Origin: Candidatus Thorarchaeota archaeon
Lineage (GTDB): Archaea > Asgardarchaeota > Thorarchaeia > Thorarchaeales > Thorarchaeaceae
Assembly (NCBI GenBank): GCA_048882325.1
Contig: JBHLRS010000033.1
Location: 1 to 32,152, forward strand
DNA length: 32,152 nt
Direction: 5' to 3'
Below the pieces are notes generated by a model. It had not been told where the DNA came from and searched no databases. It saw only the letters and a program-made list of their open reading frames with translations. The stretch's first letter is position 1; every line of letters begins with the position of its first letter. Of the stretch, positions 1 to 15,856 are shown piece by piece. The position numbers and the translations under genes are program-made.

Positions 1-71
1 GTTGTCAAGAAGAGTTCATTGTAGTAGCGAAGTAGTATCTCCATCCTCTAGTCTTACCTAATCGCCACTTC
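1..71 (+). repeat. Intergenic repeat copy 1 (subtype A, cut by the window edge)
   Basis: gttgtcaagaagagt...tgtagta...gtatctccatcctctagtcttacctaatcgcc closely matches copy 3 (4194-4256), including the right-hand extension. Confidence 0.9.
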
Positions 72-400
72 TATTTCTTTCACCAATAATCAAACAGGAA
101 TTGTAAACCAGGACCGAACAGAAAAAAAAACAGATTGAAAGGGAAAAGACAACCCTCTCAGGATTGCCCCTCAATACAGAAAGGCACTACTCACTAGTTG
201 ATGAGTTCGTTACCATAAGCAGCCTCACGGAAGTTGAATATGATGGATTCGACCTCCATAAAAAGAACAGTTTCGCAAGTATGGATTTCTTTATGGACGT
301 ATGCACTTCTTCAATGGTCTTATAATTCATTTTGTAAAATTCCTTTTGGGACCAACCTCAATCAGAGACTGGAACCAAAAGAAAGCTAAGGAGTGAGGAG

Positions 401-871
401 ATGAACGAAGAACACAAGAAGCCAAGTAGATTACAAGCACACCGAAATGCACTTCTACTTAGCCTTGCATTTGCATCATTCTTTGTAGGCGTGGCATATC
501 TCCCTGTCGCAGACGCATACTTGCATCAAGGGGGACCGCACGATTACAATGAAGATGTAGATATAATCTATACAGACTGGTCTCATCCTGGATGGATTGA
601 GATCACAACAACAGCATATAGTAATGGCCAAAAACTTGATGCTATCGAATACTCGACAGATTATGGTGGTACTACCTCGACATACACAATTGCTAAGACT
701 GATTCAGGCACAACAACCCTCAATGACTACGAGAGAATCGCCTGGGCAGAATTCACATGTCGTGAATGGTGGTGGATTTTTGTTATCCGTGAAGAAACAC
801 CAATCTTGAACACACATGTTGAGTATCTTGGCGGTGGAGGATTCGATTTCACTGATTACTATTATGACTAG
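401..871 (+). CDS. Hypothetical secreted or membrane-anchored protein
   Basis: 156-aa ORF; RBS-like ggagtgagg just upstream; N-terminal hydrophobic segment followed by a T/Y-rich domain. Confidence 0.75.
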   Translation: MNEEHKKPSRLQAHRNALLLSLAFASFFVGVAYLPVADAYLHQGGPHDYNEDVDIIYTDWSHPGWIEITTTAYSNGQKLDAIEYSTDYGGTTSTYTIAKTDSGTTTLNDYERIAWAEFTCREWWWIFVIREETPILNTHVEYLGGGGFDFTDYYYD

Positions 872-903
872 AATCTTGAACGAGTGTTCAGGAGCAGGAG
901 CAA

Positions 904-1899
904 GTGAGAAGTGAAAATCTGTATGGGCAAGTATCCCCTTATCCATTGAATCCATTTTTTCAACTGTACGGAAGATATACTGGACTTTCCGTATTCCTTT
1001 GTTTAATGATCCTCTTACAGGGATTACTCCCTTGTTCAAACGCTCTAGAGCTTCACTCAACTTTAATAGAGGATCTCCAACCTGGAGTCTTTCTAGAGTA
1101 CGTCCTGAACACTCACATCATTGTACTTTGGAACTATACATTAGAAGATTATGATATCATAACTCATCCAGGAGAGGTGCTCTACGATGATGGAAGTGTG
1201 GTGCAAGGAAGTAATGAGATTCGTATCCAAGTGAGTTTCCTCCAAGTTCTTGATTCTGATTTATTGTCAATATCAATTGAATATGATGCAAATACTTCAA
1301 CAGGGTACTTCGCTAATCACTCGGTCTTTCTTACCTACTCGGCAGAAGCTGGAACATGTCAAATCGAAAGTGGGAATCTATCAAACAGAACTGGAACGCT
1401 CCGACTCCATTTGGACGAGAAACCAGAATATCTCACAATCTCTCAGTTCTTCAATCTTGTCATCGTAGGAGAGATTGTGGACTACAACTATCAAGAAGTC
1501 GTTATGGGACAACAGCAAGAATGTATCCAATATTACTGTAGCACATCCCACGTTGTTGATGGTTTGGTCACTCATCACAGGAGTTACGATAAAGACAATC
1601 ACATTCTAGTGAGAGCCTCTGGAGGGATTTCTGACCATGTTCTTCTTGGTCTGGGCAACATATCCTACGTTGTTGGTGATCTCACATTGGCTGATACGAA
1701 TTTCAATCTTGGTGATCCAGTCCGACTTCCAGTATCAGACATCCCAGCCATCGCGGGCGTTGGAGCTCTAGTGGTCTTCTTTGTTCTGTATGTCAGCATA
1801 TATCGAGCTCAAAGGTCCAAGAAGAATTTGAGAAGATACTCAAATCGAAAGAAAGGCAAACCAAAAAGATGCTGTTTGATATTCAACGGAGTGAACTAG
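904..1899 (+). CDS. Hypothetical single-pass cell-surface protein (start uncertain)
   Basis: 331-aa ORF; signal-like hydrophobic stretch near the N-terminus, several N-x-S/T sequons, C-terminal TM helix and K/R-rich tail. Confidence 0.8.
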   Translation: MRSENLYGQVSPYPLNPFFQLYGRYTGLSVFLCLMILLQGLLPCSNALELHSTLIEDLQPGVFLEYVLNTHIIVLWNYTLEDYDIITHPGEVLYDDGSVVQGSNEIRIQVSFLQVLDSDLLSISIEYDANTSTGYFANHSVFLTYSAEAGTCQIESGNLSNRTGTLRLHLDEKPEYLTISQFFNLVIVGEIVDYNYQEVVMGQQQECIQYYCSTSHVVDGLVTHHRSYDKDNHILVRASGGISDHVLLGLGNISYVVGDLTLADTNFNLGDPVRLPVSDIPAIAGVGALVVFFVLYVSIYRAQRSKKNLRRYSNRKKGKPKRCCLIFNGVN

Positions 1900-1901
1900 T
1901 C

Positions 1902-2345
1902 ATGGAGATATGGTCAACACAACGTATCGTCACTCTTCTCACCATCTGGGCTGTTGTTATTCCGTTCAAGATCAATGTGTACCTTCCAAGACTAGATTAT
2001 TCAATCATGTATGCTGGACTGTGGTCATATCTCCCTCGAGGCAATCCATTCTCTGATTCACCATTTATTGTTTCATTGTATTTTACGGCATCTTTATTGC
2101 CTTTCTATGCTCCTGGTCTGGCTGTTGCATGGTATGTATGGAAGTGGTCGAGAGATGAGAATATGACAAGAGGAAGATACTTTGAGAGACTTCTATTGAT
2201 AGTCATTCTTCAAACCATTTTAGCTATGATAATCCCATGTCCTATGGATGTATCATTATGTGTTCCCACACCAACAACCGGTCTTATCGCTCTACTATTT
2301 TCTCATAGAATTGTCATAAAAATAGAAGAACCTTGGACAGAATGA
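1902..2345 (+). CDS. Hypothetical multi-pass membrane protein, probable distant paralog of 17588-18169
   Basis: In-frame ATG at 1902 directly after the upstream stop at 1899; about 4 hydrophobic segments; ends with P-x-P...PW. Confidence 0.75.
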   Translation: MEIWSTQRIVTLLTIWAVVIPFKINVYLPRLDYSIMYAGLWSYLPRGNPFSDSPFIVSLYFTASLLPFYAPGLAVAWYVWKWSRDENMTRGRYFERLLLIVILQTILAMIIPCPMDVSLCVPTPTTGLIALLFSHRIVIKIEEPWTE

Positions 2346-2503
2346 ATACATTCAACTGGCTGCTGTCGAACATTGCTGTTCATTTGATCACACCTTATTC
2401 AGGTACAGTGATGAACAGCCTGAATTCGAACAAGAGGGATTCACCCCTGTATTCGTACAGTACAACCCAACTTTGAGACTATTTACCAAACTCGAATAAC
2501 AGG

Positions 2504-2630
2504 AGCTCCGGCGAGGTATTCAGCTCACCGCTACTAATGTCCGAGGCGTGCAGATCAAAAGTGTGCTTCGCACAGTACCTAGAGTTGTCTAGGAGCGTAT
2601 TGTAGTAATCAAGTATCTCCATCCTTTGTT
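2504..2630 (+). repeat. Intergenic repeat copy 2 (long form, subtype B)
   Basis: 2504-2595 is identical to 5425-5516 (92 bp); contains three hairpins; ends ctccatcctttgtt followed by a T-rich tract. Confidence 0.95.
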
Positions 2631-2737
2631 AGTTATTTTTCCTTCTTCATCTATCCTTTCTTTAATTTCTAATCTCGCTGATATCAAGAAACATTATTAT
2701 CCCGCTTCTCTAAATCAGCCAAATTGGAGCAGGGAGC

Positions 2738-4084
2738 ATGAGTATTAAACTCGAATACACAACGAGAAGAACAGGGAAGTGGTTTAGGGATTACGAAAAA
2801 GACGTAGAACGCATTGACCTTAGACAGAATGATATTGATAATATTGACCTAACTCCACTCAAGTCATGTACCAATCTTCGAGAGTTATTTTTGAGTGAGA
2901 ACTATCTACAGAGTATTGACCTCACTCCGCTCAGTTCTTGTATCAATTTTTGCAATCTCCATCTAGATAGTAACCAGCTCCAAAGCATAGACCTCATTCC
3001 TTTAAGCTCTTGTGCTAATCTACAGCAGCTCATCCTGTCGAAAAACAAACTGAAGTCTATTGACCTTACTCCCCTAACTTCTTGTGCGGGAATCTTGCTT
3101 TTATATATCGATGAAAATCAGCTCCAGAGAATTGATCTTAGTCCATTAGGTTCCTGCGATAATCTTCTGAGGTTATATTTGAATGACAATCTGCTTCAAT
3201 ACATTGATCTAACCCAACTCAGCTCCTTGAAGAATATCGAAGATATCAATTTAGGGAATAACCCCCTTCAGAGTTTGGATCTAACTCCAGTCTGTGATTT
3301 ACCAAAACTCTCTAGGGTTCAAATCTATAGCCATTATACGCATGATGGGAAGACTGTTGATGTAACGCCACTCTATCAAAGATATATTGGATACTGGGGA
3401 GGGGAATATGAGCTATCTTCTTGGCTTGATGTCTCCTGGAAGGATACTCCTGTCGTCTATTCTCCCCCAACTCATCTCTACCCGTGGTCATTTATCCATG
3501 GTTTATCCAACATGGTCTATCCATTCAAAAATTATCGAGTTCAATATGATTGCCGTATCGCACTTGGTCTGAAAGATTACGGATTCATCGATTACGACTT
3601 CACCGAGGCGTTCAAATCGATACCACCAGAAACTGCCACTGAAGATGCACGGGAGATCTTGACCAAGACCCTCGTGACAGAGATTGTTGCAGCAGTGAAT
3701 AGTGGTGGTTCAACCACTGGTCTAAATGTTGAGATATTATCCGGCAAACACAGTGAAATAGCAACATTAGCCCCGAAGATCATTGAATTAAGAGCAAAGG
3801 AGATAGAGAGACTCACCATTCCAAAGCGTGGGAATGAGTTTGATTTGCGGGAGCTCTGGGTCACTGCATATGGTCACCAGATTTTGAGTTCAATTCCAAA
3901 GCAACCTGAATCACTTAGTATCAGCAAGATTAAACCCGTCAAAAAAGCTCTTTCTAAGTTGGGTCTTGAGTTGAAGATTGGAGATTCACCAGTATCTGGT
4001 GTATCAATGAGTAAAGAACTGAAAGAGTGTATCTGGTGGATTGTAGAGAACAAGGGTGAATATTGGGCTTATGGTGTGAGTTAA
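2738..4084 (+). CDS. Leucine-rich repeat protein (22-aa internalin-like LRRs plus C-terminal domain)
   Basis: About 7-8 repeats of LxxLxLxxNxLxSIDLxPLxSC with a 66-nt period visible in the DNA; RBS-like ggagcagggag. Confidence 0.92.
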   Translation: MSIKLEYTTRRTGKWFRDYEKDVERIDLRQNDIDNIDLTPLKSCTNLRELFLSENYLQSIDLTPLSSCINFCNLHLDSNQLQSIDLIPLSSCANLQQLILSKNKLKSIDLTPLTSCAGILLLYIDENQLQRIDLSPLGSCDNLLRLYLNDNLLQYIDLTQLSSLKNIEDINLGNNPLQSLDLTPVCDLPKLSRVQIYSHYTHDGKTVDVTPLYQRYIGYWGGEYELSSWLDVSWKDTPVVYSPPTHLYPWSFIHGLSNMVYPFKNYRVQYDCRIALGLKDYGFIDYDFTEAFKSIPPETATEDAREILTKTLVTEIVAAVNSGGSTTGLNVEILSGKHSEIATLAPKIIELRAKEIERLTIPKRGNEFDLRELWVTAYGHQILSSIPKQPESLSISKIKPVKKALSKLGLELKIGDSPVSGVSMSKELKECIWWIVENKGEYWAYGVS

Positions 4085-4139
4085 TCCGGAACTGTACTCC
4101 GCTCAACCTGAAATGCGGTCACTACAACAGCTGGCCAGA

Positions 4140-4256
4140 GCTACTAATGTCCGAGGCGTGCAGATCCAAAGCGTGCTTCGCACAGTACCTAGGGTTGTCA
4201 AGAAGAGTCTGCTGTAGTAATGAAGTATCTCCATCCTCTGGTCTTACCTAGTCGCC
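4140..4256 (+). repeat. Intergenic repeat copy 3 (subtype A)
   Basis: gctactaatgtccgaggcgtgcagatc..gtgcttcgcacagtacctag shared with copies 2 and 4; right part shared with copy 1. Confidence 0.95.
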
Positions 4257-4268
4257 TTTTCTTTCCAT

Positions 4269-5249
4269 CTAAATTGAATGAATCTCGACACGTTGTCTTC
4301 CTGTTTCTCCACCATTGTGACCCCATGGTCCCCATGAGATCTTGGCCATGTCTTCCAGTCTTGAAGCATCAGCCACAACATTTAGTGTGTCCCATTTCTC
4401 AATGGGGCCCAGGTCCAATTCTTGAAGGCTTGGGTGACCGAGGAGTGGTGTGACATCAATACATTTCACATTGAGGGGTCTGATATGAAGACTCTTCAGA
4501 CTTGTACAGTTTCGAAGGGGTTCTAGGTCAAGGTCGAATTGGATGTCATCATCGGTTAAGGAGGTTCTATGGAATCCTATATACTCCAGACTCTCATTGG
4601 TCGGAAAATTTATTGATCTGTATGGTCTGGAGTTGCCAAGATTTATATCTTTCAGGGAGGCACATCCTGAGAGTGGACTGAGGTCAAGGTCATTGAAATG
4701 ACCCCAGAGGGTAATTTCTTCTAGATTCTGGAGTTTCGAGACTGGTGTGAGGTCAGGATCAAAACTATAATCGCGATAGGGAGGATTCTCGTTCCAATCA
4801 AGATTGAGATACGTCAGCTTTGAAAGATATTCTATTCCCCCGAGGTCGATTTTTTGTGAGCATTCATCTTCATACATGATTCTGAATTCTACCAAATGGT
4901 CCTTGAGCGACTTAAAACTCTCAAGGGATGGTAACGACTCATAATTCGGACTATAGGCAGGTCTGAGCGTGAGTTCACATAGATTTTCAACCTCAACTAA
5001 AAGAGAGAAGTCTAACTCTGGTCCGAACTTACCACTGATTTCAATGTGTTCGACGCCAGGCTCATTCTCATGTGCGAGGTAATGTTTGATGTCGCCTGTG
5101 TCAAGCTCCCAATTGAATGGAAGTAGAATACGATATCTTTCCGCCTCCTCTTTTTCCTCCTCTGAGTACTGAAACTCTCTTCCTCTCTTCTTTATTGAGC
5201 CTGTCTTTCTGAACTGCACTCTCATGCGCCTACCTGTTTTCATTCTCAT
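4269..5249 (-). CDS. Divergent leucine-rich repeat protein
   Basis: 326 aa with repeated DLxPLxxCxSLKxxxL-like units (DLSPLSGCASLKDINL, DLEPLRNCTSLKSLHI). Confidence 0.85.
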   Translation of the reverse strand: MRMKTGRRMRVQFRKTGSIKKRGREFQYSEEEKEEAERYRILLPFNWELDTGDIKHYLAHENEPGVEHIEISGKFGPELDFSLLVEVENLCELTLRPAYSPNYESLPSLESFKSLKDHLVEFRIMYEDECSQKIDLGGIEYLSKLTYLNLDWNENPPYRDYSFDPDLTPVSKLQNLEEITLWGHFNDLDLSPLSGCASLKDINLGNSRPYRSINFPTNESLEYIGFHRTSLTDDDIQFDLDLEPLRNCTSLKSLHIRPLNVKCIDVTPLLGHPSLQELDLGPIEKWDTLNVVADASRLEDMAKISWGPWGHNGGETGRQRVEIHSI

Positions 5250-5424
5250 TTCTAATTCTTTTAAGATTAGTCAACGCTGAGTAAAATATGGGTTTCTTCA
5301 TGGTAACTTTCAGATTATTTCTCCAGTAGGCTTTCCAAACCAGTTTGCTTCTGGTTCCCATTCTCCTTGCGGAACAAAGCCTCTCTCACCTCTGCGCATT
5401 TGACAGTGTGCCTTCAGAGCACCA

Positions 5425-5547
5425 AGCTCCGGCGAGGTATTCAGCTCACCGCTACTAATGTCCGAGGCGTGCAGATCAAAAGTGTGCTTCGCACAGTACC
5501 TAGAGTTGTCTAGGAGTGTATTGTAGAAACATGACCTCCATCCTTTG
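5425..5547 (+). repeat. Intergenic repeat copy 4 (long form, subtype B)
   Basis: 92 bp identical to copy 2, then tgtattgtag-aaacatgac-ctccatcctttg. Confidence 0.95.
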
Positions 5548-5638
5548 ATGTCTTTTTATTTTCTACCAGTAGTATCATCTTTTATGTTAGGACGTTTTCT
5601 ACGTCTATCCTTCAAAGCTAGATTAAGGAGGATTCTCA

Positions 5639-6451
5639 TTGGCTAAGGAAATCCCATTGCATGAAAAACAAGTAGTGTTCAAGCATCCGGGTAAAGACAA
5701 CTTCGATACCAAGCTTGATTTGACATATCGGCAAACCAAGGACGGTCCTCTCAAGATGGACGTATACATTCCTGGTAAACTCTCGGAAGGAGAACGTGTC
5801 CCTGGGGTCTTATTCATCCATGGCGGTCCACTCCCCTCCGAATTTCGACCTCAGCTGAAGAATTGGGGACAATACATTTCTTTTGGTAAATTGATAGCCA
5901 ACTCTGGTCTGGTTGGTTTTACATTCAATCACCGTTATCACGAATATTCTCAACTCGAACAGTCCTCTAGAGACATTGGTGCTGCTATTCAATACGCGCG
6001 TGAAAATGCATCTTCGTTCAAGCTTGACCCAGATCAGATTTGCCTCTGGGCAATTTCCGGAGGCGGCCCGCAGCTGAGTTTAATCCTTCATGAATTTGCT
6101 AGTTCTATTCAATGCATTGTTGCATATTACACCATCCTTGATTTGCGCCATATTCAGGAAGCAGTTAATGTGTTAAGTTCCGAGGTATTAGAAAAGACTG
6201 CATTGGAAACACATCTCCGATTAAGGCATTTTGAGGATATTCCCATTTTCATTGCCCGTTCTGGCTTGGACGACCCCAAGCTCAACAAGACAATCGATTG
6301 CTTTGTAAAGGAGGCTACAAAGTCAAACATCCAACTTGATTTTGTCAACCATGCACATGGACATCATGCATTCGATGTGCTCGATGACAATATTCGATCT
6401 CGAGAGATTATAGTTTCTACAATCCGTTTCATCAAATCCAGTTTCCAATAA
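5639..6451 (+). CDS. Alpha/beta hydrolase (esterase/lipase-like)
   Basis: DVYIP..PGVLFIHGG oxyanion motif, nucleophile elbow WAISGGG, C-terminal HAFD histidine; aggagg RBS before a TTG start. Confidence 0.88.
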   Translation: MAKEIPLHEKQVVFKHPGKDNFDTKLDLTYRQTKDGPLKMDVYIPGKLSEGERVPGVLFIHGGPLPSEFRPQLKNWGQYISFGKLIANSGLVGFTFNHRYHEYSQLEQSSRDIGAAIQYARENASSFKLDPDQICLWAISGGGPQLSLILHEFASSIQCIVAYYTILDLRHIQEAVNVLSSEVLEKTALETHLRLRHFEDIPIFIARSGLDDPKLNKTIDCFVKEATKSNIQLDFVNHAHGHHAFDVLDDNIRSREIIVSTIRFIKSSFQ

Positions 6452-6504
6452 CCGCATTGTGTTCGTTACACAAGACACCCGAAACGAAACAACGACTCGT
6501 GTAT

Positions 6505-6565
6505 TACCTAGAGTTGTTCAAGGAACTGTTGTGTTGTAGGAACGATACCTCCATTCTTTGTTGTT
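6505..6565 (+). repeat. Intergenic repeat copy 5 (left-truncated, diverged)
   Basis: tacctagagttgttcaagga...ttgtag-gaacgatac-ctccattctttgttgtt followed by a T-tract. Confidence 0.85.
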
Positions 6566-6619
6566 TATTTTTTTTTGGTTAAATCATCTCCGAGAAAATT
6601 CAGTATGCTTGAAGCTGAA

Positions 6620-7333
6620 TCAACCAATTGTGACATCCCAAACCACAGAATCAAGGAACTCTCCATCACTTACTGAAACATTCAAATCATAAGATCCTGT
6701 TTGGAATTGAGCTGCAAAAAGAATGAAGCTCGTTGTATTATAATCCGCAAGTATATTGTTTAATTTCCATGATATTGCTAATGTATCATTATCCAAATCA
6801 ATAACAGTGATATTGAATACCTGAAAAGTTCCAGTTGACAGTTGGACTGCATGAGTTGGATAATACTCGGTGATCTCTGGAGGATGATTCTGGATTCCTT
6901 GGTTATCATTGAGTGTAGGTAGAATAATGAAACCAATGAAAAGAACAGAGATTGTGGTTAGGCCCAGAAAACCTAGTGCTCTCCCTCTGGATTTTAAGAA
7001 ATATCCTCTTCCCCTTCTCCAAAACCCCTGCGTTTTGTCTTTCTGCGAAGCTGAGAATCCCCTTCCTTTGTCCGACACCATTTTACCGTAGCCTTTTGAT
7101 CTCGCTCTAGATTTTGAGAAGCGACCTCTTCCTCTTCTCCAAAACCCCTGCGTTTTGTCTTTCTGCGAAGCTGAGAATCCCCTTCCTTTATCTGACATTC
7201 CTTTACCGTAGCCTTTTGATCTCGTTCTAGATTTTGAGAAGAAACCTTTGATTCTTCCACCAATTTTCTTTAGAAAACTTGAAAGTCCACCCATTGCTTT
7301 TCTAACCTCTCTATCATGATAAATCAAATTCAT
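6620..7333 (-). CDS. Single-pass membrane protein with basic 40-aa tandem repeats and a C-terminal Ig/PKD-like domain
   Basis: N-terminal K/R/G/S-rich repeats, one TM helix (FLGLTTISVLFIGFIILP), then NHPPEI...DLDNDTL.ISW...YDLNVSVSDG, typical of Ig/cadherin-like folds. Confidence 0.82.
   Translation of the reverse strand: MNLIYHDREVRKAMGGLSSFLKKIGGRIKGFFSKSRTRSKGYGKGMSDKGRGFSASQKDKTQGFWRRGRGRFSKSRARSKGYGKMVSDKGRGFSASQKDKTQGFWRRGRGYFLKSRGRALGFLGLTTISVLFIGFIILPTLNDNQGIQNHPPEITEYYPTHAVQLSTGTFQVFNITVIDLDNDTLAISWKLNNILADYNTTSFILFAAQFQTGSYDLNVSVSDGEFLDSVVWDVTIG
6981..7247. repeat. Intragenic 120-bp tandem repeat, about 2.2 copies
   Basis: Sequence from 7021 recurs at 7141, and from 7081 at 7201, with few substitutions. 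Confidence 0.95.
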
Positions 7334-7387
7334 TCAGAAATGACCGACAGCTTGCATGAAACTTACAGAGTGGCCAATCAACATATT

Positions 7388-7463
7388 AAAAGTGCGCTTC
7401 GCATAGTACTTAGAGTTGCTCAAGGATATTGTAGTAAAACAAGTATCTCCATCCTTTGTTGTT
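7388..7463 (+). repeat. Intergenic repeat copy 6 (left-truncated)
   Basis: aaaagtgcgcttcgcatagtacttagagttgctcaagga.attgtag-taaaacaagtat-ctccatcctttgttgtt. Confidence 0.92.
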
Positions 7464-7551
7464 GATTCTTATTGTTTCTCCTGTAGTGCGGATGATTTTT
7501 CCGTCTAATTAGCATATATTGATTGACCCAATTGAAACTGAGAATTAGAAG

Positions 7552-8388
7552 ATGCCTCAGAGAGTCTTGTTATTCCGGAATTTGATAGACAACATACCAA
7601 AAAACATAGGACTCTATTCAGTGGGAGTCATGCTTCTTCTTCTACTTCGAATCTCAATCAACCTATTATCAATGCTGTTAGGGTTACTCGCTTTCTTGGT
7701 TTCCTACTCCTCGATTTATGTACTAAACGATCTATATGATGCTGAAGACGACAAGAAAGACGAACGGAAAGTCCCAAGAAAACCCTTAGCGCAGGGAGTC
7801 GTCAATAGGAACGAAACTAAGGCGATTTTCGTATCGTTTTTGATACCAGGTCTTCTGCTCTCTATTCTTCTGAATCCATTGTTCTTCTTTGTAGTTTGTC
7901 TACTAGTTTTTATCAACCTGATTTACTCCCTTCCGTTGGTAGGAACTAAGAACCGGAGCTCAGAAGAGATAGGCTCCCAAAGTCTGAAGCACACAATTGT
8001 TGGACTGCCTTTGGTTTTCCTGATGCAATTCCTGAAGATACTCCTTCCTTGGACCACCATCCCTGAAATACTGCATTTTCCTGCTCTTTTTGCTATCGGA
8101 TTTTCTGTTGTCTATATCATACTATTCAGAGGCTACAAAGAATATCTGACCATTGGTGAATCTATCGTAAAAGCTCCGTTCCTTTTCTGTGCCTCAATTA
8201 TGATCTTCATTATATCAATGAGCATGTATCCTGAACCATTCCTTCAAGCTTCAATGGTGACCTTCATTCTTGTGGGAATCATATTTTTCCGAAACTCACA
8301 TCTAACTGATAGGAGGGTCTTGCTAGTAAGCCCATGGTATATTCTTCTAGGCATCATCTTCCTTGTCTTCTTGATATCGAACATATAG
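7552..8388 (+). CDS. UbiA prenyltransferase family protein
   Basis: Asp-rich motif NDLYDAEDD followed by RKP; multiple TM helices. Confidence 0.85.
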   Translation: MPQRVLLFRNLIDNIPKNIGLYSVGVMLLLLLRISINLLSMLLGLLAFLVSYSSIYVLNDLYDAEDDKKDERKVPRKPLAQGVVNRNETKAIFVSFLIPGLLLSILLNPLFFFVVCLLVFINLIYSLPLVGTKNRSSEEIGSQSLKHTIVGLPLVFLMQFLKILLPWTTIPEILHFPALFAIGFSVVYIILFRGYKEYLTIGESIVKAPFLFCASIMIFIISMSMYPEPFLQASMVTFILVGIIFFRNSHLTDRRVLLVSPWYILLGIIFLVFLISNI

Positions 8389-8511
8389 AGATTGTACACT
8401 CATAGAACAATAGACTCACTATGACCACAATATTGGGAATCTATGGCTGCAACAATAACTCAATATGAATTTGCGTCATTATTTATTTTCGTAGGGGCGT
8501 GAATTTGATAA

Positions 8512-9030
8512 TTGGTTCAATTACTTAACAGAAAGCAATCTGCTTTACTAGCGTCTTTTTTGATTGTCCTCTTGATTGGTATTCCAACTATTGGACATCT
8601 ACCAATCCATAGAACCAACATACAGTATTCAGACCCTCTTGGAGATGTATCAGATCCAGACTTTGATGTCATCGAAATCAGGTCGTATATCCGGTTTCAG
8701 AATATTATTCTTGAACTGACTGTCGCAGGAACGATTCAAACACCAGATACCTGGTCATCCTATTCTGACTTCATATACCGAATAAACGTGGTAGCCAGAG
8801 GAATAAATCGAGCTGCACATATCTATTCTTGTGCATATCAAAATGGAGTCGTGGATCAGTATGGTTTTGATGTAGAGGTAGCGAATTCAACCCTTAGAAT
8901 CTTCTTTCCAATGACTGCTTTCATATCGGACTCCTATATGATTGGTTTGGAAGGAGTTGCCCAGTCTCCATTTGAAGATGACTTAACTCCAGAAGATAGG
9001 GACTCCAACATAGCAAGGCTGCTGTTCTGA
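8512..9030 (+). CDS. Hypothetical secreted or membrane-anchored protein
   Basis: 172 aa, TTG start, N-terminal TM/signal, DPxGDV..PDxDV motif. Confidence 0.75.
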   Translation: MVQLLNRKQSALLASFLIVLLIGIPTIGHLPIHRTNIQYSDPLGDVSDPDFDVIEIRSYIRFQNIILELTVAGTIQTPDTWSSYSDFIYRINVVARGINRAAHIYSCAYQNGVVDQYGFDVEVANSTLRIFFPMTAFISDSYMIGLEGVAQSPFEDDLTPEDRDSNIARLLF

Positions 9031-9035
9031 AATAC

Positions 9036-9073
9036 TTGTAGTAATAGAACAAGTATCTCCATCTTTTGTTGTT
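9036..9073 (+). repeat. Intergenic repeat copy 7 (right end only)
   Basis: ttgtagtaatagaacaagtatctccatcttttgttgtt, nearly the same as the right end of copy 6. Confidence 0.88.
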
Positions 9074-9113
9074 AATTTTTGCTATATCCTGATGATGGAA
9101 TTGAGCACTACTG

Positions 9114-10019
9114 TTAGATTACCACTCTCTCGCCAGGGATTCTTCTAAATGCCTGCACATCTCCTACATGAGAAGCTCCAACGAGAAATCGAGTCAGTCT
9201 TTCAACACCTAAACCAGCACCAGCACTTGGAACAAAACCATTTCGGGCAAACTCTAGATACGGTTTGTAATCCTCTTTGCTGAGTCCATCTCTCTCAATC
9301 CTCATGACAATTCTGTCATATGTCCATTCTCGCTCTCCACCACTGAGTGCCTCACCAAATCCTTCTGGATATACCAAATCATAGTTGCGATAAACACCAG
9401 GTCTCTCTGGATCCTCTGCATCATAGAACTCGCGCTTGTGATTCAGCACCCAAAAAGGATCTTCCGCCTCCTCACTTGCTAATTTTTCCCACTTGGCTCC
9501 ATATTTCTCGTTGAGTTCATCAGTAGAAAAAATTTCGAACTTTCTAGGGATTTTGACTTCCCTATCCCAAAGAGCTAATTCATCACTACAATCTTTTCTT
9601 ACCTGGTTTATAGTTGCGGTAATAGTGTCTTGTATCAGCGTGAAAACTGCGTACATGTCTGCATGAGCTAGCTCGAAATCCACCTGGGAAAACTCAAACA
9701 AATGACATCCGGTTTCTCGACTTTGAACATTCTCGAGCCGTATGTTTGGTGATACAGCAAAGAATTTCTCAATACCAGATGAAACCATTATTTGTTTTTG
9801 CAGAATCATGCTTGTAGTCAGAACGAGTTTCTGACCTTGATACTCAACAGCTGGCATACCAATTATCCTACTTCCTGGATCGGGTCCTAGTGGATCACTC
9901 ACAGTGGTCAGGATTACCGGTAAAATCTCAATCAGTCCATTCTTGCGAAAGGTTTCTCTAATTGATTTCAAGGCAACACTTTGCACATTTAATGCTGCAG
10001 CTGTCTTTTCATTTTTCAT
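9114..10019 (-). CDS. asnA: Archaeal-type asparagine synthetase A (AsnRS catalytic-domain paralog lacking the anticodon-binding domain)
   Basis: 301 aa; class II aaRS motif 2 (SPNIRLE...HLFEFSQVDFE), EALSGGERE, motif 3 (SAGAGLGVERL); no N-terminal OB fold. Confidence 0.88.
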   Translation of the reverse strand: MKNEKTAAALNVQSVALKSIRETFRKNGLIEILPVILTTVSDPLGPDPGSRIIGMPAVEYQGQKLVLTTSMILQKQIMVSSGIEKFFAVSPNIRLENVQSRETGCHLFEFSQVDFELAHADMYAVFTLIQDTITATINQVRKDCSDELALWDREVKIPRKFEIFSTDELNEKYGAKWEKLASEEAEDPFWVLNHKREFYDAEDPERPGVYRNYDLVYPEGFGEALSGGEREWTYDRIVMRIERDGLSKEDYKPYLEFARNGFVPSAGAGLGVERLTRFLVGASHVGDVQAFRRIPGERVVI

Positions 10020-10128
10020 ACTCTATAGAGTGTCAAACAGGATTAAAAGAAATTCCTTTGAAAAGCGAATATTTTGCAATTTCATTCGATAATATACTTC
10101 AGAATACGTAAAATTTTCGAACACTCAA

Positions 10129-10151
10129 TGTAGTGATTACCATCCTTTGTT
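10129..10151 (+). repeat. Intergenic repeat copy 8 (minimal remnant)
   Basis: tgtag-tgatta-ccatcctttgtt; same orientation and intergenic position as the other copies. Confidence 0.65.
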
Positions 10152-10223
10152 CGTAATTCGTCAAAATGGTTGCTTTGAACTAGCATATTATTAGCATCTC
10201 ACTGGAGTTCTGTCACCATTGAG

Positions 10224-11147
10224 GTGAGTTCTCTGAAGAAATCTATTCGCAGTCGTAGAGCAATACTCGCAACTTGTATACTACTATTCTTCATTCTAAC
10301 ATCGATACCAAATGCATATTCTGCATCTCAAGAGCTTCCATCAACTCTTTCTGATCTAAGTGACACTAAAGTAGCTATATTCGGTGGGGTAGGAGTACTG
10401 GACAGTTCCAAGGATGCACTTGAAAGTATGTTTCTCTGGGCGAACGCTTCAGTTGATATAGTATATGCATTTCAGATTCTTAATGGAACATTGGACTCAT
10501 ATGATATCGTGGTATTTCCCGGAGGCTCAGCTGTATCCTATTCTCAAGGGTTAGGAACTGAAGGACTCGATGTCATCCGCGAATTCGTGAGGAATGGTGG
10601 TTCATACTTTGGAATATGCGGAGGCTCTCTATTTGCGACAAATGCTGTCCTTGGTCTGTTCAATGGTTCTTACAGCAACTCAATCAATGGTACAGGCATA
10701 TTTCTTACAGAGATGTATGTGAATCAGAACTCAACAGGTCCCGATCTATCGGATGAACCAGAATCATACTGGACCATGTATTGGGGGTCCTCATATTTCT
10801 ATGGTGAGATGGACAATATCATTCCTATCTGTTCGTACTCCTTGAATGATAGACCAGGGATGATTGCATTTTCTTCAGGAGCGGGCACAGTCTTTCTTTC
10901 CAGCCCCCATCCTGAATACGAAGAGGGTGATTCTAGGGACGGTACCATTTTCTCTGATTACTTGAACGATCCGGATACAGAATGGAATCTCATGTTGAAA
11001 GTATCGCGATGGCTTGTTGATGAATCTACGACCACGCCTCTACCTAGTCAAAATGGACTACGAATATCCCCTTACGTCATCGCTGGAACTATAGCAGTAA
11101 TTGGTCTGATGTCTATCGTATTTCTGGTCAAAATCAGAAAGACTTAG
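10224..11147 (+). CDS. Membrane-anchored BPL_N-like / class I glutamine amidotransferase-like protein
   Basis: VVFPGG, GGSYFGICGG nucleophile Cys, HPE; signal peptide and C-terminal TM. Confidence 0.82.
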   Translation: MSSLKKSIRSRRAILATCILLFFILTSIPNAYSASQELPSTLSDLSDTKVAIFGGVGVLDSSKDALESMFLWANASVDIVYAFQILNGTLDSYDIVVFPGGSAVSYSQGLGTEGLDVIREFVRNGGSYFGICGGSLFATNAVLGLFNGSYSNSINGTGIFLTEMYVNQNSTGPDLSDEPESYWTMYWGSSYFYGEMDNIIPICSYSLNDRPGMIAFSSGAGTVFLSSPHPEYEEGDSRDGTIFSDYLNDPDTEWNLMLKVSRWLVDESTTTPLPSQNGLRISPYVIAGTIAVIGLMSIVFLVKIRKT

Positions 11148-11207
11148 TGCCCTACGAAAACAGCTCAATGTTTATCAGAATCCTCGAGTAATTGACACAG
11201 TGGGGTC

Positions 11208-11501
11208 ATGAAAGAGTCGCAAACTGAAGGTCAGAAAAAGCGACGAAGAAAATTTCTGGGAAGTGTTGCTGTAGGGATTGGACTGAGTTTCATTGCTTTT
11301 GTGATTGTCTTTGGAATGCTTATACCCCTAGTTTCTGCAGACGGTAGTTCAGTTGAACTAGTGCAGATACACAATGTCATAGCAGGTCCAATTCTCATTT
11401 TTGGTATCCTTCTCATCCTTGCTGGATTAATAGCAATTCTACTTCCAGAAGGTTTCTCTAAAGATGGATTCTGGAGTTTTCAGACAGGTCCCTATCAGTG
11501 A
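11208..11501 (+). CDS. Small two-TM hypothetical protein
   Basis: 97 aa; basic N-terminus followed by two hydrophobic helices. Confidence 0.7.
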   Translation: MKESQTEGQKKRRRKFLGSVAVGIGLSFIAFVIVFGMLIPLVSADGSSVELVQIHNVIAGPILIFGILLILAGLIAILLPEGFSKDGFWSFQTGPYQ

Positions 11502-11574
11502 TGAAATCTGCATTATTGATGTTTCCTATTCTTTTGAGAAATAGATAAAACAAGCAACTAATTCGCACCATGAT

Positions 11575-12405
11575 ATGGACCCACTAATCATGTTCCTTGC
11601 AATTCCCATTGGACTTCTGATTGGTCTTGGTGCAGGAATAGTTGGACTAACTGCATGGCCAATCATAGTACCACTGCTCTTTGTCATTGGAGGGGTACCA
11701 CTTCACGAGTCTCTATTGTCAAGTCTTCTAGTGGACCTCGCCATAGCTGTGACGTTGTCATTGTTCTATGTTCGAAGTCCTGATTCCGGAGTGAACATGC
11801 AACTTGGGTCACGGTTGGGTCTGATCGCTGGTGTAACTGCCCTGGTCACTGTATTGATTGCATTTCCACTATTGGAGCAATACTCCAACGCATTTAGAGG
11901 TGGGTCTCCTTTCATCACTCTTGCACTAGGAGTGATCTTTCTTGTTCAGGGTATTAGATTGAGAACAAAAGGCGAGGGAAGCGACACTTTGCAGTATGAA
12001 CTTGGGGCTGCACCAAACTCTGATGTACTGAAACAGAAGATATCCTATATCATTTGTGTGTTAATTGGGTTCCTCACAGGTGCCATTGCTATAGGTGGTG
12101 CGATGAACTTTGTCCTTGTTTTGGTATTTCTGCTAGGGTATCCAACATTTCGAGCTGTTGGAACAGCAATGGTCGCCACAACAGTAATGCTTTCGATGAC
12201 CGTTGTTTCGTATCTCATACTTCTTTCCTTCAGCATATCCACTATACCAATTGTGCTTCTCTATACCTTTGGTGGAGTGTTGAGCAGTTACATCGCAGTC
12301 ACAAGGGCACAGCATATTCCCGAGGTGAAGTTGAGAATCCTAATAGGTTTCGTAGTTATTGCCACTGCAATCTTTGCAGCAATACAAGTGTATCTCCTTA
12401 CCTAA
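11575..12405 (+). CDS. TauE/SafE family (sulfite exporter-like) membrane protein
   Basis: Two-fold GxxxGxxxGxxG pattern, AVGTAM motif, about 8 TM helices. Confidence 0.8.
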   Translation: MDPLIMFLAIPIGLLIGLGAGIVGLTAWPIIVPLLFVIGGVPLHESLLSSLLVDLAIAVTLSLFYVRSPDSGVNMQLGSRLGLIAGVTALVTVLIAFPLLEQYSNAFRGGSPFITLALGVIFLVQGIRLRTKGEGSDTLQYELGAAPNSDVLKQKISYIICVLIGFLTGAIAIGGAMNFVLVLVFLLGYPTFRAVGTAMVATTVMLSMTVVSYLILLSFSISTIPIVLLYTFGGVLSSYIAVTRAQHIPEVKLRILIGFVVIATAIFAAIQVYLLT

Positions 12406-12475
12406 TCCAATCACTTGCTTACATGAGTAATTTAAAGACCGAACCAATTCTAGGTCCATCTGTTGTGAAGCAATC

Positions 12476-13036
12476 ATGACAAAGATAGAGCTCAATTCAG
12501 ATGGGTCCCCCTTTCCCAAACCAATTGTTCTTATTGGTTCTGTAATTGATGGTCGACCAAATTTCATCACAGTGGCATGGTTCAATAGGATGAGTAGAAC
12601 GCCAAACATATGGGGGGCATGTGTGGGTAAGACCAAATACACACTCAAAGGCATTCAACAAAATGGAACTTTCAGTGTCAACTTTCCAAGCATTGACCTA
12701 GTGAAAGAAACAGATTACTGTGGCATTCGCTCAGGCAAGGATGTCGACAAATCACGACTTTTCGATATCTTCTACGGAGAACTTGATACTGCTCCGATGA
12801 TAAAGGATTGCCCAATCACTGCAGAATGCACATTAACTGAACTCATTGATATATCAACTCATTATCTTCTCCTTGGTGAAGTAAAACACCTTTACTCTGA
12901 GGAACGATACATGACCGATGGTGTTCTAGATCAAAAGAAACTGAATCTACTCATCTTCACAAATCCTGCTCTCCAATATTGGAAATTAGGTGATGTTGTG
13001 GCTGACGCATACTCTGTTGGGAAGATGCTTGGCTAG
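12476..13036 (+). CDS. Flavin reductase family protein (flavoredoxin-like)
   Basis: PIVLIGS..GRPNFITVAW, FSVNFP, DYCGIRSG...DK, APMIKDCP, HYLLLGEV. Confidence 0.9.
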   Translation: MTKIELNSDGSPFPKPIVLIGSVIDGRPNFITVAWFNRMSRTPNIWGACVGKTKYTLKGIQQNGTFSVNFPSIDLVKETDYCGIRSGKDVDKSRLFDIFYGELDTAPMIKDCPITAECTLTELIDISTHYLLLGEVKHLYSEERYMTDGVLDQKKLNLLIFTNPALQYWKLGDVVADAYSVGKMLG

Positions 13037-13068
13037 GATAAAAATGACCATCATAAAATCTCGACGTT

Positions 13069-13524
13069 TCATATTGAAGTATCTCCGAGGTGTTTACTCA
13101 GTTCCCAAAGTGACGGGACCAAACCCAGTTCAGTCAAGACGTCGTAGAAGCAAAAAGCACCCCACCTATCAATGACTTTTCCTTCAGAGTTAATGTAGAG
13201 GATTGTTGCTCCCTCGAACTTTACTTCCTTGCCAGTCGGTTCGAATCCCCATGCACTACCCTTCTGTGTACCCCTGGCTCTGTATCGTATCCAGACCTTA
13301 TCTTCCTCCCCATTGATTTCGACAATGTCATACTTTAGATCCGGAAACACAGATCGGAAATATCTGATCTCATGTTTTACCTGATCCGGACCGACAGCGT
13401 CGATTTGTATCCACTCTGGATCATAATCTTTGTCAACAATTTCATCAGCAACATCCAGATCTGGCATACTCCACATCTCATTATACCACCGTTTACCAAT
13501 CCTTTCATTTCTCTCTTTGGACAC
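13069..13524 (-). CDS. SnoaL-like ester cyclase (NTF2-like fold)
   Basis: FPDLKY...EEDKVWIRY..RGT..G...GFEPTGK.V...G...GKV..RW. Confidence 0.88.
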   Translation of the reverse strand: MSKERNERIGKRWYNEMWSMPDLDVADEIVDKDYDPEWIQIDAVGPDQVKHEIRYFRSVFPDLKYDIVEINGEEDKVWIRYRARGTQKGSAWGFEPTGKEVKFEGATILYINSEGKVIDRWGAFCFYDVLTELGLVPSLWELSKHLGDTSI

Positions 13525-13644
13525 TCAAATCACCCTACGTCAGTATCAATGGTTATGAATTTGAACCAATCAACTTTCTTTCACTATGCATAAATATTAC
13601 TTATCAAGCACATAGTTGTTCAAACACCTTAAGTATCAGTATGA

Positions 13645-14880
13645 ATGTGGTATTTTATGCTTGTAGCGGACAGCGAGCGAGAGAGTTTATGGAGAAACCA
13701 CTATCTAGGAGTCCAGAGCCTCTTTTATTTGGCACAGGGCGTTGCAATGGGTGCACTACTCTTTCTTCCTTCATTCTTTGGCTACTTGCATGTGGATGAA
13801 TTTGGGAGGATTCTCTTCCAATCTGTGATTTGGTTGCCTTGGTATCTCAAAGTATTCTTTGGCATTCTTTCAGACAATGTGCCAGTCAGAGGATACGGAA
13901 GACGTAAACCCTACATGCTGATAGCAGGAATCATCGGGATAATTGGATGGATCACAATCCCGCTCTATACAGAGTTCTCAATGCTCCTGCTTGTATCTGG
14001 TATCCTTGCATCATTTGGAACCGGAATGAGTGATGCAACGATAGACGCGTTTGCGGTTGAAATCACTCCACAAAAACGACGAGGAGTACTGCAAGGTCTA
14101 TCATGGGGCTTTAGGGGTTTGGGGCTAGGATTGACAGCATTTCTTGCTGGTGTGTTAGCTGATGCAAATGCATGGTTTGTTCTCTTTTCTGTTCCAGGAA
14201 CACTTGTGAGCCTGTCTTGTTTCTTAGTCCTACTATTCAAAGAGAATCCATTACCTGAGGATTTCAAGAGAGTAAGCGGTCGCGAGTATAGGAAGGCTTT
14301 CGCCAACACAAACGTGCAGCAAACCTTCATCTTCAATCTCTTTGCAGCATCAGCAATCTCAATACTTCCCACCATTCAGACGTTTCTTGAGGTTGATCTT
14401 GGACTAGACCTTGTGACAGTTGGTCTTTTGTTTTCGATATTCTCAGTGGGATTGTTTATCGGTTCTCTAATATTCGGTCTTCTTGGCGACCGAATCTCTG
14501 TACGAACAACATTACCAGCGACCTCAGCTGTGTATGCAGTAGTCATCCTATTAGCACTCTTCACCAACCTGCAAATCCTAGAAGACTCAATGATTTTCTT
14601 TTTCGTGATTGGATTGACTGCTGGGGGCTATCAAACAACACAGCTTAGAATAAACATGGACAACACTCCCTCTATCGCATCCGGGACTATATTCAATCTC
14701 TACAATAGCATAGCAAATGTTGGTTTGATAGGTATCGGTGCACTTGCTGTCGCTGGATTGGAGAGCTATACTGGTACTTATCAGGCAAGCTGGCAACTAC
14801 TCTGGGTTTTTCTCATAATTGCCCTCATTCCTGGTTACTACCTCACTAGAAAGAAAATCGAAACTGATACTGATGAATAA
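13645..14880 (+). CDS. MFS transporter (AmpG/BT1-like); start may be the ATG at 13657
   Basis: LPWYLKVFFGILSD...GRRKPY and GLLGDRIS motifs, DATIDA, about 12 TM helices. Confidence 0.9.
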   Translation: MWYFMLVADSERESLWRNHYLGVQSLFYLAQGVAMGALLFLPSFFGYLHVDEFGRILFQSVIWLPWYLKVFFGILSDNVPVRGYGRRKPYMLIAGIIGIIGWITIPLYTEFSMLLLVSGILASFGTGMSDATIDAFAVEITPQKRRGVLQGLSWGFRGLGLGLTAFLAGVLADANAWFVLFSVPGTLVSLSCFLVLLFKENPLPEDFKRVSGREYRKAFANTNVQQTFIFNLFAASAISILPTIQTFLEVDLGLDLVTVGLLFSIFSVGLFIGSLIFGLLGDRISVRTTLPATSAVYAVVILLALFTNLQILEDSMIFFFVIGLTAGGYQTTQLRINMDNTPSIASGTIFNLYNSIANVGLIGIGALAVAGLESYTGTYQASWQLLWVFLIIALIPGYYLTRKKIETDTDE

Positions 14881-14901
14881 CAAGTGGTGGGGTGTGCATC
14901 G

Positions 14902-15594: not shown

Positions 15595-15669
15595 ATGAAC
15601 CAGAACACATCATAAAAAGGCGAATGATTTTACTAGATAGTTTGAAGTATCTTTCTGGCCGCAAAACCC

Positions 15670-15846
15670 ATGCTTCAGACAACAACTGTTGGTCTAACAA
15701 TGATTGGCATTAGTATAGTTCGTTTGCTATTTCTCCTCTACACAATAACGCATCTAGAACAGCTAGGAATAGACATCACACATCCAAGAGTGATTGTTGA
15801 ACTCTTAATCTTCATCCTACTATTAGTAATTGGTTTGGTTCTCTGA
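15670..15846 (+). CDS. Putative 58-aa two-TM protein (below the ORF-track cutoff)
   Basis: Hand-translated MLQTTTVGLTMIGISIVRLLFLLYTITHLEQLGIDITHPRVIVELLIFILLLVIGLVL*; fills an otherwise empty gap. Confidence 0.5.
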   Translation: MLQTTTVGLTMIGISIVRLLFLLYTITHLEQLGIDITHPRVIVELLIFILLLVIGLVL

Positions 15847-15856
15847 CCTGATTAGC

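Follow-up and report, generated by a model that had tools for sequence, protein, structure and literature searches.

The DNA analyzed here, referred to as the window, is an entire 32,152-nt contig of a Thorarchaeota MAG (G000), and it starts inside a repeat copy. Searching the 3.6-Mb MAG by nhmmer with a profile derived from the repeat copies returned eight copies (the eighth weak), all on the plus strand between positions 1 and 10165, and no other match at E < 0.1 in the remaining 22 kb of the window or in the 88 other contigs. Every copy is intergenic, and one to three genes in either orientation lie between successive copies. The copies share a common 3′ end, their differences in length being due to 5′ truncation, and they differ in sequence as well as length (65 to 98% identity). 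A preliminary description of this DNA had reported a cassette array at this one locus, with eight co-oriented intergenic copies delimiting one to three genes of either orientation and no convincing copy in the other 22 kb, and all of this was confirmed. Dispersal of the MITE or REP type, which it had named as a possible refutation, was not seen, as every match at E < 0.1 lay on one strand within 1 to 10165. The positions that it gave for the copies stood, but not all of their extents (homology in c3 begins only at ~4140, despite an nhmmer start of 4115, and c4 starts at 5418).

[quoted passage not shown] Cassette 1 (73 to 2503, plus strand) contains open reading frames at 401 to 871, 904 to 1899, and 1869 to 2345 that encode orphans of the membrane or secreted type; these matched no Pfam family and have no paralogue elsewhere in the genome. 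Copy c2 (2504 to 2645; nhmmer, 2505 to 2643, E = 4e-45) consists of the last ~53 nt of 23S and a full trailer of type B and is 91% identical to the native 23S end of G005, with boundaries at −53 to +71. It is followed by cassette 2 (2738 to 4084, plus strand), an LRR protein gene (Pfam LRR_8 and LRR_4). Copy c3 (4140 to 4262; nhmmer, 4115 to 4255), with the last ~25 nt of 23S and a type A trailer, shares 88% identity with the native ends of both G013 and G014 and precedes a second LRR protein gene, cassette 3 (4269 to 5249, minus strand; LRR_4). Copy c4 (5418 to 5565; nhmmer, 5426 to 5563) again combines 23S sequence (last ~59 nt) with a type B trailer, and its first 105 nt are 98% identical to c2. 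Cassette 4 (5639 to 6451, plus strand) encodes an alpha/beta-hydrolase esterase (BD-FAE).

The distal half of the array carries shorter copies. Copy c5 (6500 to 6578; nhmmer, 6486 to 6574, E = 1.5e-13; boundary, +20) begins near the central helix of the BHB and runs through the trailer to the T-run. Cassette 5 (gene at 6620 to 7333, minus strand), whose read depth was doubled, forms a unit at 6593 to 7475 with its downstream copy, c6 (7382 to 7475; nhmmer, 7382 to 7473). Cassette 6 (7552 to 9030, plus strand) encodes a UbiA-family prenyltransferase (7552 to 8388; Pfam UbiA) and a 172-amino-acid membrane protein (8512 to 9030). Copy c7 (9026 to 9085; nhmmer, 9026 to 9082, E = 1e-6) retains the last ~45 nt of the trailer, that is, the stem base and T-run, and cassette 7 (9114 to 10019, minus strand) encodes an AsnA-like protein of the class II synthetase fold (tRNA-synt_2). 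In the most decayed copy, c8 (10129 to 10165; nhmmer, 10130 to 10162, E = 0.002 to 0.04, a weak match), only the stem-base core is left, and its position coincides with the start of the conserved distal flank. By Pfam and synteny, this flank (10224 to 17110) contains GATase-like, 97-amino-acid, TauE, flavin reductase, SnoaL, MFS, UbiE, and GFO/IDH genes.

The repeat consists of the final ~50 nt of the 23S rRNA gene followed by a 3′ trailer of ~90 nt, and the element is thus not “unrecognized,” as had been claimed. Rfam searches placed the end of the full large-subunit rRNA inside the first copy in four relatives (G014, G017, G012, and G001), and the partial copies align with the final ~50 nt of 23S and the trailer; for G000, the same assignment is made by inference. 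When leader and trailer were cofolded, the 23S trailer formed the 3′ strand of the pre-23S processing stem, with a canonical 3-4-3 BHB whose 3′ half is carried by the trailer as the invariant block CAGTACCTAGRGTTGTC. Among the copies, conservation is higher in the BHB half and paired segments than in the loop segments, and a T-run ends each copy. When six copies were folded as single-stranded DNA, both strands being used for two of them, no common hairpin emerged (z = −1.8 to +1.6 against shuffles); the copies instead pair with the distant 23S leader in cofolds. Neither the hairpin nor the R″/R′ (GTTRRRY) boxes of attC were found, in agreement with the preliminary description, in which canonical attC boxes are said to be lacking.

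The assembled G000 MAG does not include a 23S gene, and the contig begins at c1. Because of this, the adjacency of c1 and 23S is deduced from relatives, in which a single 23S gene immediately precedes the first copy; one full 23S gene was found in each genome checked. Over its first 60 nt, c1 has 100% identity both to the native trailer behind the full 23S gene in G014 (L029, 7968 to 8027) and to one copy in G012. It is probably the native trailer of the unassembled G000 gene. By tblastn, the distal flank is syntenic with G013, G005, G017, G012, and G001, and six genomes have 23S on one side and the flavin reductase, UbiE, and GFO genes on the other.

Between these flanks, relatives differ. 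In the DNA fetched for G017 and G005, only the native copy is present, while other relatives have from 3 to more than 20 copies, with cassettes and order differing. Arrays occur in at least 10 genera of one Thorarchaeota family, some with more than 20 copies, and were found only behind the rRNA gene, none in front. G000 and G013 both hold AsnA-like, UbiA, GATase-like, and 6620-type genes, in different order but with the orientation relative to the array kept. The AsnA-like protein has 74% amino acid identity to the product of a repeat-bounded G013 gene in the same array-relative orientation, and the UbiA gene is also repeat bounded in both G014 and G013. The gene for the 172-amino-acid membrane protein is a separate cassette in G094 and G092, two genomes in which two cassettes also stand in swapped order. 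The integron-like variation in gene content and order that had been proposed was thus borne out, and the fixed gene order that would have spoken against it was not observed.

Comparing sequences across genomes, we found that the unit is a cassette plus its downstream copy, with orientation retained. The unit at 6593 to 7475 has 85 to 90% nucleotide identity to its counterpart in G013 (L030, 13735 to 12728), compared to ~70 to 75% for flanking core genes, and the 5′ end of c6 falls at the identical position in G000 and G013. Similarly, a 5.1-kb block that is 94% identical between G094 and G092 stops where its copy stops, with the boundary at −24 in both. Across ~55 non-native copies, the 5′ ends are scattered from −193 to +62, which fits illegitimate joints rather than crossover at a fixed site. 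A few copies are truncated on the 3′ side; most 3′ ends lie near one place, the stem base or T-run, and the sequence immediately past a copy is often replaced.

Copy decay increases with distance from 23S. The nhmmer scores of c2 to c8 were 150, 131, 139, 47, 79, 25, and 15 bits (rank correlation with position, −0.93, computed by hand), and the same trend was seen in G013 and G014. The G000 array is also a mosaic, as trailer types A and B, native to different species, coexist in it. The identity of the c1 and G014 trailers contrasts with ~75% identity between the genes, and one G012 copy is a B′/A chimera whose type A half is still linked to the YdjM gene that follows the native type A trailer in G014. 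Taken together, the mixed types, the c1-G014 identity, and the chimera imply imports from relatives, although the mosaic evidence, one G012 chimera and the mixed G000 types, offers too few dated events for crossover mapping. Copies of a 16S tail, unrelated to the 23S tail, are also repeated in G000 (contig C59), which makes a single sequence-specific site less likely.

Site-specific capture by a dedicated enzyme, either left of the window or acting in trans, had been the expectation. In relatives, the DNA to the left is the 23S gene, and its upstream neighbors in G014 (RNase PH, a nucleotidyltransferase, a WD40 protein, and an M28 peptidase) include no recombinase. PF00589, PF00239, PF00078, PF07282, PF01797, and PF01867 were all absent from G000, which speaks against an enzyme in trans, although a recombinase could be missing from this MAG, which is 93% complete. 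PF00589 had no match in G000, G001, G013, G092, or G094, while all 14 control genomes were matched. No tyrosine or serine recombinase, reverse transcriptase (RT), TnpB, HUH transposase, or Cas1 was common to the array-bearing genomes tested, no integrase was found among the cassette genes scanned, and no intI lies beside the array; Pfam models are blind to divergent or unknown enzyme families. Together with these absences, the scattered 5′ ends and mixed trailers favor host recombination over site-specific capture. Of the integron-like reading as a whole, the array and its variability stand; the repeat is not an unknown element, and capture by a dedicated enzyme is not supported.

The explanation that we favor, at somewhat better than even confidence, is that DNA accretes behind the rRNA gene with no integrase, through homologous recombination that uses the conserved rRNA end as its anchor. 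The region directly behind the 23S gene would be a hot spot where genes accumulate and are shuffled. When DNA is added beside the rRNA gene, a working gene end and trailer would be kept or restored at 23S, and the previous tail, truncated at an arbitrary 5′ point, would stay downstream of the new DNA. Repeated additions would then build a co-oriented array with the oldest and most decayed copies farthest from 23S, and recombination between direct repeats could move, delete, or reorder cassettes while leaving their orientation unchanged. A dedicated enzyme would be unnecessary, with host homologous recombination the most likely driver. The conserved 23S end and trailer would anchor incoming DNA of related species, and the other joint could form by illegitimate recombination or by circularization and a single crossover. 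Public contigs from four samples displayed one fixed arrangement and no joints, and no recombination event was observed directly. Arrays that lie behind the gene only are not what homology by itself predicts; for these, selection against separating promoter and gene must be invoked. A site-specific cut at the stem base or T-run would explain the common 3′ end and the replaced sequence equally well, and the better conservation of the BHB half and paired segments could mean that copies still function.

We consider it unlikely that a dedicated and unrecognized site- or structure-specific system works in trans at the stem base and handles cassette-plus-copy units as IntI handles attC. A cassette and its downstream copy do behave as an ORF and attC, the 3′ end is common to most copies, units are bounded at the stem base, copies are co-oriented with orientation kept, the newest units adjoin the gene as they would at attI, and the phenomenon is lineage wide. 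Such a system sits poorly with the lack of any tyrosine or serine recombinase, HUH, Cas1, RT, or TnpB family common to array-bearing genomes (G000 has none), with scattered 5′ ends and some 3′-truncated copies, with copies that have no hairpin of their own, with the use of two unrelated tails (23S and 16S) in one genome, and with a chimera that switches inside the repeat. Slimmer still are the chances of an integrase-independent Asgard gene capture system dedicated to this task, with the 3′ strand of the rRNA processing stem (BHB half-site and stem base) as its recombination or processing signal. It could take two forms: an unrecognized DNA enzyme that cuts at the stem base, or spare tails that pair with the leader so that cassette transcripts become coupled to the rRNA precursor through splicing endonuclease and ligase.

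We are more doubtful that the heavily transcribed rRNA end is a fragile site, with staggered breaks or template switching capturing DNA and duplicating the stretch between the cuts. The copies would then be very long target site duplications, made with no homologous donor. A common 3′ end with a variable 5′ end, the 98% identity of c2 and c4 over 105 nt, and the independence from any enzyme agree with this, and the restriction to the region behind the gene follows naturally. However, breakage predicts host-type trailers alone, yet trailer types native to other species are mixed into the array, a foreign trailer half is linked to the same following gene as in the donor-like species, and the same cassette-plus-copy units occur in several species.

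It is quite improbable that the copies are kept as functional RNA, either as spare stem and BHB 3′ halves that would pair with the single leader or as terminators. Expression or processing of cassettes would then be tied to rRNA maturation, and the array structure would be a by-product. BHB formation between two separate RNAs is established for archaeal split tRNA genes, a precedent in its favor. The BHB half and stem-base core are the best-conserved parts, even in the short, old copies c5, c6, and c7, and one change in c6 would preserve pairing through a wobble. However, c7 and c8 have no BHB half, some copies have no stem base, decayed copies exist, genes point in both directions, and the terminal T-run of each copy should block read-through. 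A history in which each copy was a working trailer before being displaced would account for the conservation just as well. Finally, chaining of contigs from several strains through a shared rRNA tail is highly improbable. In its favor, the contig begins within a copy, every copy is a break point in the public contigs, and rRNA regions are hard to assemble. However, copies vary in length and sequence (65 to 98% identity), read depth in four samples matches across all inter-repeat pieces, and independent MAGs have arrays in the interior of long contigs (G014, 84 kb; G013, 258 kb; G092, 114 kb).

We found no published description of cassette arrays bounded by rRNA tails. The ends of stable-RNA genes are where integrase-bearing elements classically land, and the classic example of a cassette array is the integron; here, an RNA-end landing site and a cassette array are combined, with neither integrase nor attC. 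The end of a single-copy rRNA gene gathers small accessory blocks, many encoding membrane, secreted, or LRR proteins, and its own tail is the repeat between them. If host homologous recombination drives accretion, it would show how, in the archaea most closely related to eukaryotes, genes can flow between species by way of a portable docking site that is the most conserved sequence of the genome. On the practical side, such arrays fragment MAG assemblies at rRNA genes and can conceal accessory genes.

Tandem genomic islands and integrative elements reportedly occupy the 3′ ends of tRNA and tmRNA genes (Reiter et al. 1989; Williams 2002). As in those islands, the direct repeats described here are partial 3′ ends of a stable-RNA gene that itself stays intact, and successive insertions stack behind the gene while old units decay. 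Unlike in those islands, the target is the 23S rRNA gene with its processing-stem trailer, the units (0.8 to 2.5 kb) carry no integrase, the genome has no tyrosine recombinase, and the −193 to +62 spread of 5′ ends leaves no fixed crossover. Composite SCC islands of staphylococci lie at the 3′ end of rlmH and depend for their movement on Ccr serine recombinases, which act at a short, fixed site. They also form tandem units, some without a recombinase of their own, with direct repeats that copy the end of a conserved gene, but no serine recombinase was found in the genome here.

HVR2 of SAR11 is a hypervariable region between the sole 23S and 5S rRNA genes (Wilhelm et al. 2007, PMC2217521). Like the array, it is a fast-changing island beside a single-copy 23S gene, rich in cell surface genes and free of attC, and rRNA genes have been proposed as its homologous recombination anchors (PMC2217521). 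Unlike the array, it is bacterial and exchanged whole between two rRNA genes, and its description includes no internal rRNA-tail copies or cassette structure (PMC2217521). Sedentary chromosomal integrons and integrase-less attC clusters (CALINs), archaeal ones included (Ghaly et al. 2022, PMC9668308), differ in having IntI, attI, or attC hairpins with R′/R″ boxes, whereas the repeat here is one strand of a long-range RNA stem and the cassettes hold one to three genes in either orientation. As in those arrays, small cassettes of unrelated accessory genes are each followed by a co-oriented, lineage-specific repeat, order and content vary among relatives, and the newest units lie at one end.

By repeat finding and profile search, we confirmed that the window, which is a complete contig (C33) of a 3.6-Mb MAG (G000, 89 contigs, 93% complete), contains eight copies of a single element, all on the plus strand as first described. 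These lie at 1-65 (c1), 2505-2643 (c2, the best match, with an E value of 4e-45), 4115-4255 (c3), 5426-5563 (c4), 6486-6574 (c5), 7382-7473 (c6), 9026-9082 (c7), and 10130-10162 (c8, weak, with an E value of about 0.002-0.04). The 3' part is common to all copies, which vary by 5' truncation. We likewise found the copies to be intergenic, with one to three genes in either orientation between them, and the remaining 22 kb to be free of a convincing copy. At E < 0.1, the profile matched nothing further there or in the other 88 contigs of the genome. Three of the cargo proteins are orphans of membrane or secreted type; the others are two LRR proteins, an esterase, an orphan of 237 aa, an AsnA-like protein, and, together, a UbiA-family protein and a membrane protein of 172 aa. 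The gene of the 237-aa orphan (6620-7333, minus strand) has two tandem 120-nt units, 86% identical, within its coding sequence at 6972-7211. Farther along the window, positions 18618-25161 hold a cluster resembling reductive pyrimidine degradation (aldehyde dehydrogenase, DHO-dehydrogenase-like protein with 4Fe-4S, class-III aminotransferase, CN-hydrolase, and amidohydrolase), and three paralogous genes lie in tandem at positions 26152-28429 (minus strand), all of them encoding a bacterial PH (bPH_2) domain.

The Rfam scan of the window suggested in the preliminary description returned no match at E values up to 1, and a tRNA scan found none. The LSU model needs more sequence than the copies provide, and only relatives revealed what the repeat is. 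The repeat sequence is present in 17 of the 24 genomes of the genus, frequently at contig ends. In relatives with longer contigs, Rfam places the end of a complete archaeal LSU rRNA within the first copy: G014 (L029 4861-7940, plus strand), G017 (L035 9201-12310, minus), G012 (L031 5068-8141, plus), and G001 (L032 12687-15795, minus). Alignment showed that full-length copies consist of the last ~50-60 nt of mature 23S rRNA, with the invariant TACTAATGTCCGAGGCGTGCAGA, followed by a trailer of ~90 nt that finishes in a T-run. Cofolding of leader and trailer in five genomes shows the trailer to form, over its entire length, the 3' strand of a long pre-23S processing stem holding a textbook bulge-helix-bulge (BHB). 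Its leader side reads GACAAC / AGGU / bulge AAU / ACUGUGU, and its trailer side reads ACAGU / ACCU / bulge AGA / GUUGUC. The invariant block CAGTACCTAGRGTTGTC of the copies is therefore the 3' half of the BHB; the stem base is their conserved core GTATCTCCATCCTYTG. BHB-dependent excision and circularisation are established for archaeal pre-rRNAs (PMC7038931, PMC7714728, PMC10351888).

No 23S gene is present in the MAG assembly of G000. Nucleotides 1-60 of the window are 100% identical to the trailer directly attached to the 23S gene of G014 (its native copy), and the contig therefore most likely starts inside its own native trailer. Judging by this match, the rRNA gene of G000 most likely lies directly left of the window.

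Among relatives, cassette content and order differed, as in an integron. The far flank of the array is shared by relatives, with genes from 10.2-17.1 kb of the window (GATase-like, 97-aa, TauE, flavin reductase, SnoaL, MFS, UbiE, and GFO/IDH) recurring behind the 23S gene in G013, G005, G017, G012, and G001. G017 and G005, whose contig terminates within its 23S gene, have the native copy alone in the DNA examined; another contig of G017 carries a second tail copy. Three copies occur in G012, four in G014, seven in G013, and five in G001, on two contigs overlapping inside a copy. G000 and G013 share AsnA-like, UbiA, GATase-like, and 6620-type genes in a different order, and every shared gene points the same way along the array in both. 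Identity to G013 is 85-90% across the 6620 cassette and c6, the copy downstream of it, versus about 70-75% in core genes, and c6 and its G013 counterpart have an identical 5' end. This cassette had doubled read depth in four samples. The first unit behind the 23S gene spans 10-12 kb in G014 (L029 8173-18419) and G001 (L032 328-11901) and encodes a RiboL-PSP-type HEPN protein, a 550-578-aa TnpB-like protein, and a ~1,900-aa orphan, arranged differently in the two genomes.

At least ten genera of the family (f1) include genomes in which the 23S-end motif is present two or more times. Genomes of one genus, g28, have a single full 23S gene each and more than 20 co-oriented copies, which are distributed over several array contigs. 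Two of these, G094 and G092, share a 5.1-kb block that is 94% identical, terminates exactly at the end of the downstream copy, and has a -24 boundary (relative to the 23S gene end) in both. The block and a second shared cassette stand in opposite order in the two genomes. Taken together with the 6620 cassette and c6, this block indicates that the persistent unit is a cassette plus its downstream copy. In a phylum-wide motif scan, genomes with multiple copies were confined to f1; because the motif is poorly conserved elsewhere, this result does not argue for absence in other families. In g28 (G094 L052-L056, G092 L058-L061), the repeated unit extends about 45 nt beyond the stem base, taking in a T-run followed by a purine-rich GAGAAGAGCTGAT-like motif. 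Paralogous surface proteins are encoded by several g28 cassettes; their C-terminal membrane anchor and KKR tail end exactly at the 5' end of a tail copy.

Copy scores in the window drop away from the gene, from c2 to c8, as 150, 131, 139, 47, 79, 25, and 15 bits (rank correlation with position of -0.93, computed by hand), and the trend also appears in G013 and G014. Such an age gradient implies that new DNA enters adjoining the rRNA gene. We locally aligned about 55 displaced (non-native) copies, each to the native 23S end of its own genome. Their 5' ends ranged from -193 to +62, chiefly -60 to 0, while the 3' end was mostly at the stem base or T-run, and a few copies were 3' truncated. Trailers in the genus fall into types A (native in G014 and G013), B (G005), and B' (G017, G012, and G001). 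Types A and B both occur in the window, the former in c1 and c3 and the latter in c2 and c4. One chimeric copy in G012 is B' as far as the BHB block and type A beyond; its type-A half is followed by a YdjM gene, and the same YdjM lies behind the native type-A trailer of G014. Trailer halves therefore came in with the following gene, with the switch inside the repeat.

A second contig of G000, C59, has fragments of the 16S 3' end plus trailer, at least five in number and all in one orientation (~3177-8733), at 3177-3218, 4326-4450, 6098-6144, about 8290-8410, and 8653-8733. No assembled 16S gene is present in the MAG. This suggests a second cassette array in the same genome, anchored on the 16S tail, so that two unrelated rRNA tails behave alike.

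Six-frame HMM searches of G000, G001, G013, G092, and G094 found no tyrosine recombinase (PF00589, which matched in 14 of 14 control genomes) and no reverse transcriptase. Serine recombinases occurred only in G001, distant from the array, Y1 HUH transposase only in G094, and Cas1 only in G092; TnpB was absent from G000. Those cassette proteins that were scanned include no recombinase. The five genomes, all Thorarchaeota and 93-99% complete, hence have no XerA-like gene that PF00589 can detect. The copies did not fold alone (z from -1.8 to +1.6) and had no attC-like fold. The interpretation in the preliminary description is thus partly supported: the cassette array stands, with variable order and content, but site-specific capture by a dedicated enzyme is not supported by the searches for a recombinase and for attC, and the repeat is a 23S end and trailer.

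The array is most simply explained by integrase-free accretion behind the rRNA gene. In this scheme, DNA that comes from related species and bears the conserved 23S end would recombine homologously on that side, and its other side would be joined illegitimately or following circularisation. The resident tail, cut short at the joint, would stay downstream of the incoming DNA, and subsequent recombination between direct repeats could delete or reorder units with orientation kept. Accretion of this kind is consistent with the score gradient and the cassette-plus-copy unit, with 5' ends that are scattered, with trailers of mixed and chimeric type, with both rRNA tails being used, and with the lack of a shared enzyme. 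The structure and dynamics of the array are well supported; the recombination pathway is inferred.

Accretion alone explains neither why arrays lie solely behind the gene nor why most copies end at the stem base, and we therefore keep three further readings. An enzyme of an unrecognised kind may cut at the stem base, duplication may occur at a fragile site, or the copies may retain an RNA function, for which the strong conservation of the BHB half and paired segments speaks. A one-crossover Campbell insertion does not fit the G012 copies, as the reciprocal chimera is absent, unless gene conversion followed. A TnpB-type element was rejected as the driver: a TnpB-like gene is in the first cassette of G014 and G001 but there is none in G000, and the G092 and G094 matches are on contigs other than those with tail copies found. 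Retroposition of the 3' exon after BHB cleavage was dismissed since the copies span both sides of the bulge, their 5' ends miss the cut, and RVT_1 is absent.

No virus or plasmid with a 23S tail was found in IMG/VR, where a 23S-end 23-mer had no match and the 14 matches of a BHB-block 17-mer were chance by nhmmer. Five public runs (X1-X5, two studies) contain the window stretch. Contigs of X2-X5 break at every copy and showed no joints, circular forms, or alternative order; as contigs cannot show rare forms, this result is silent on excision.

Full-text literature searches found no description of rRNA-tail cassette arrays. In the way it works, the array resembles a sedentary integron or CALIN (PMC9668308), from which the absence of intI and attC sets it apart. 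Tandem islands at tRNA and tmRNA gene ends look alike, but the array here is without an integrase or fixed crossover. SAR11 HVR2 (PMC2217521) has a similar position, and rRNA genes were proposed as recombination anchors there; however, the internal tail copies present here were not described for it. The 23S-tail array is a variant form of gene-accretion sites already known.
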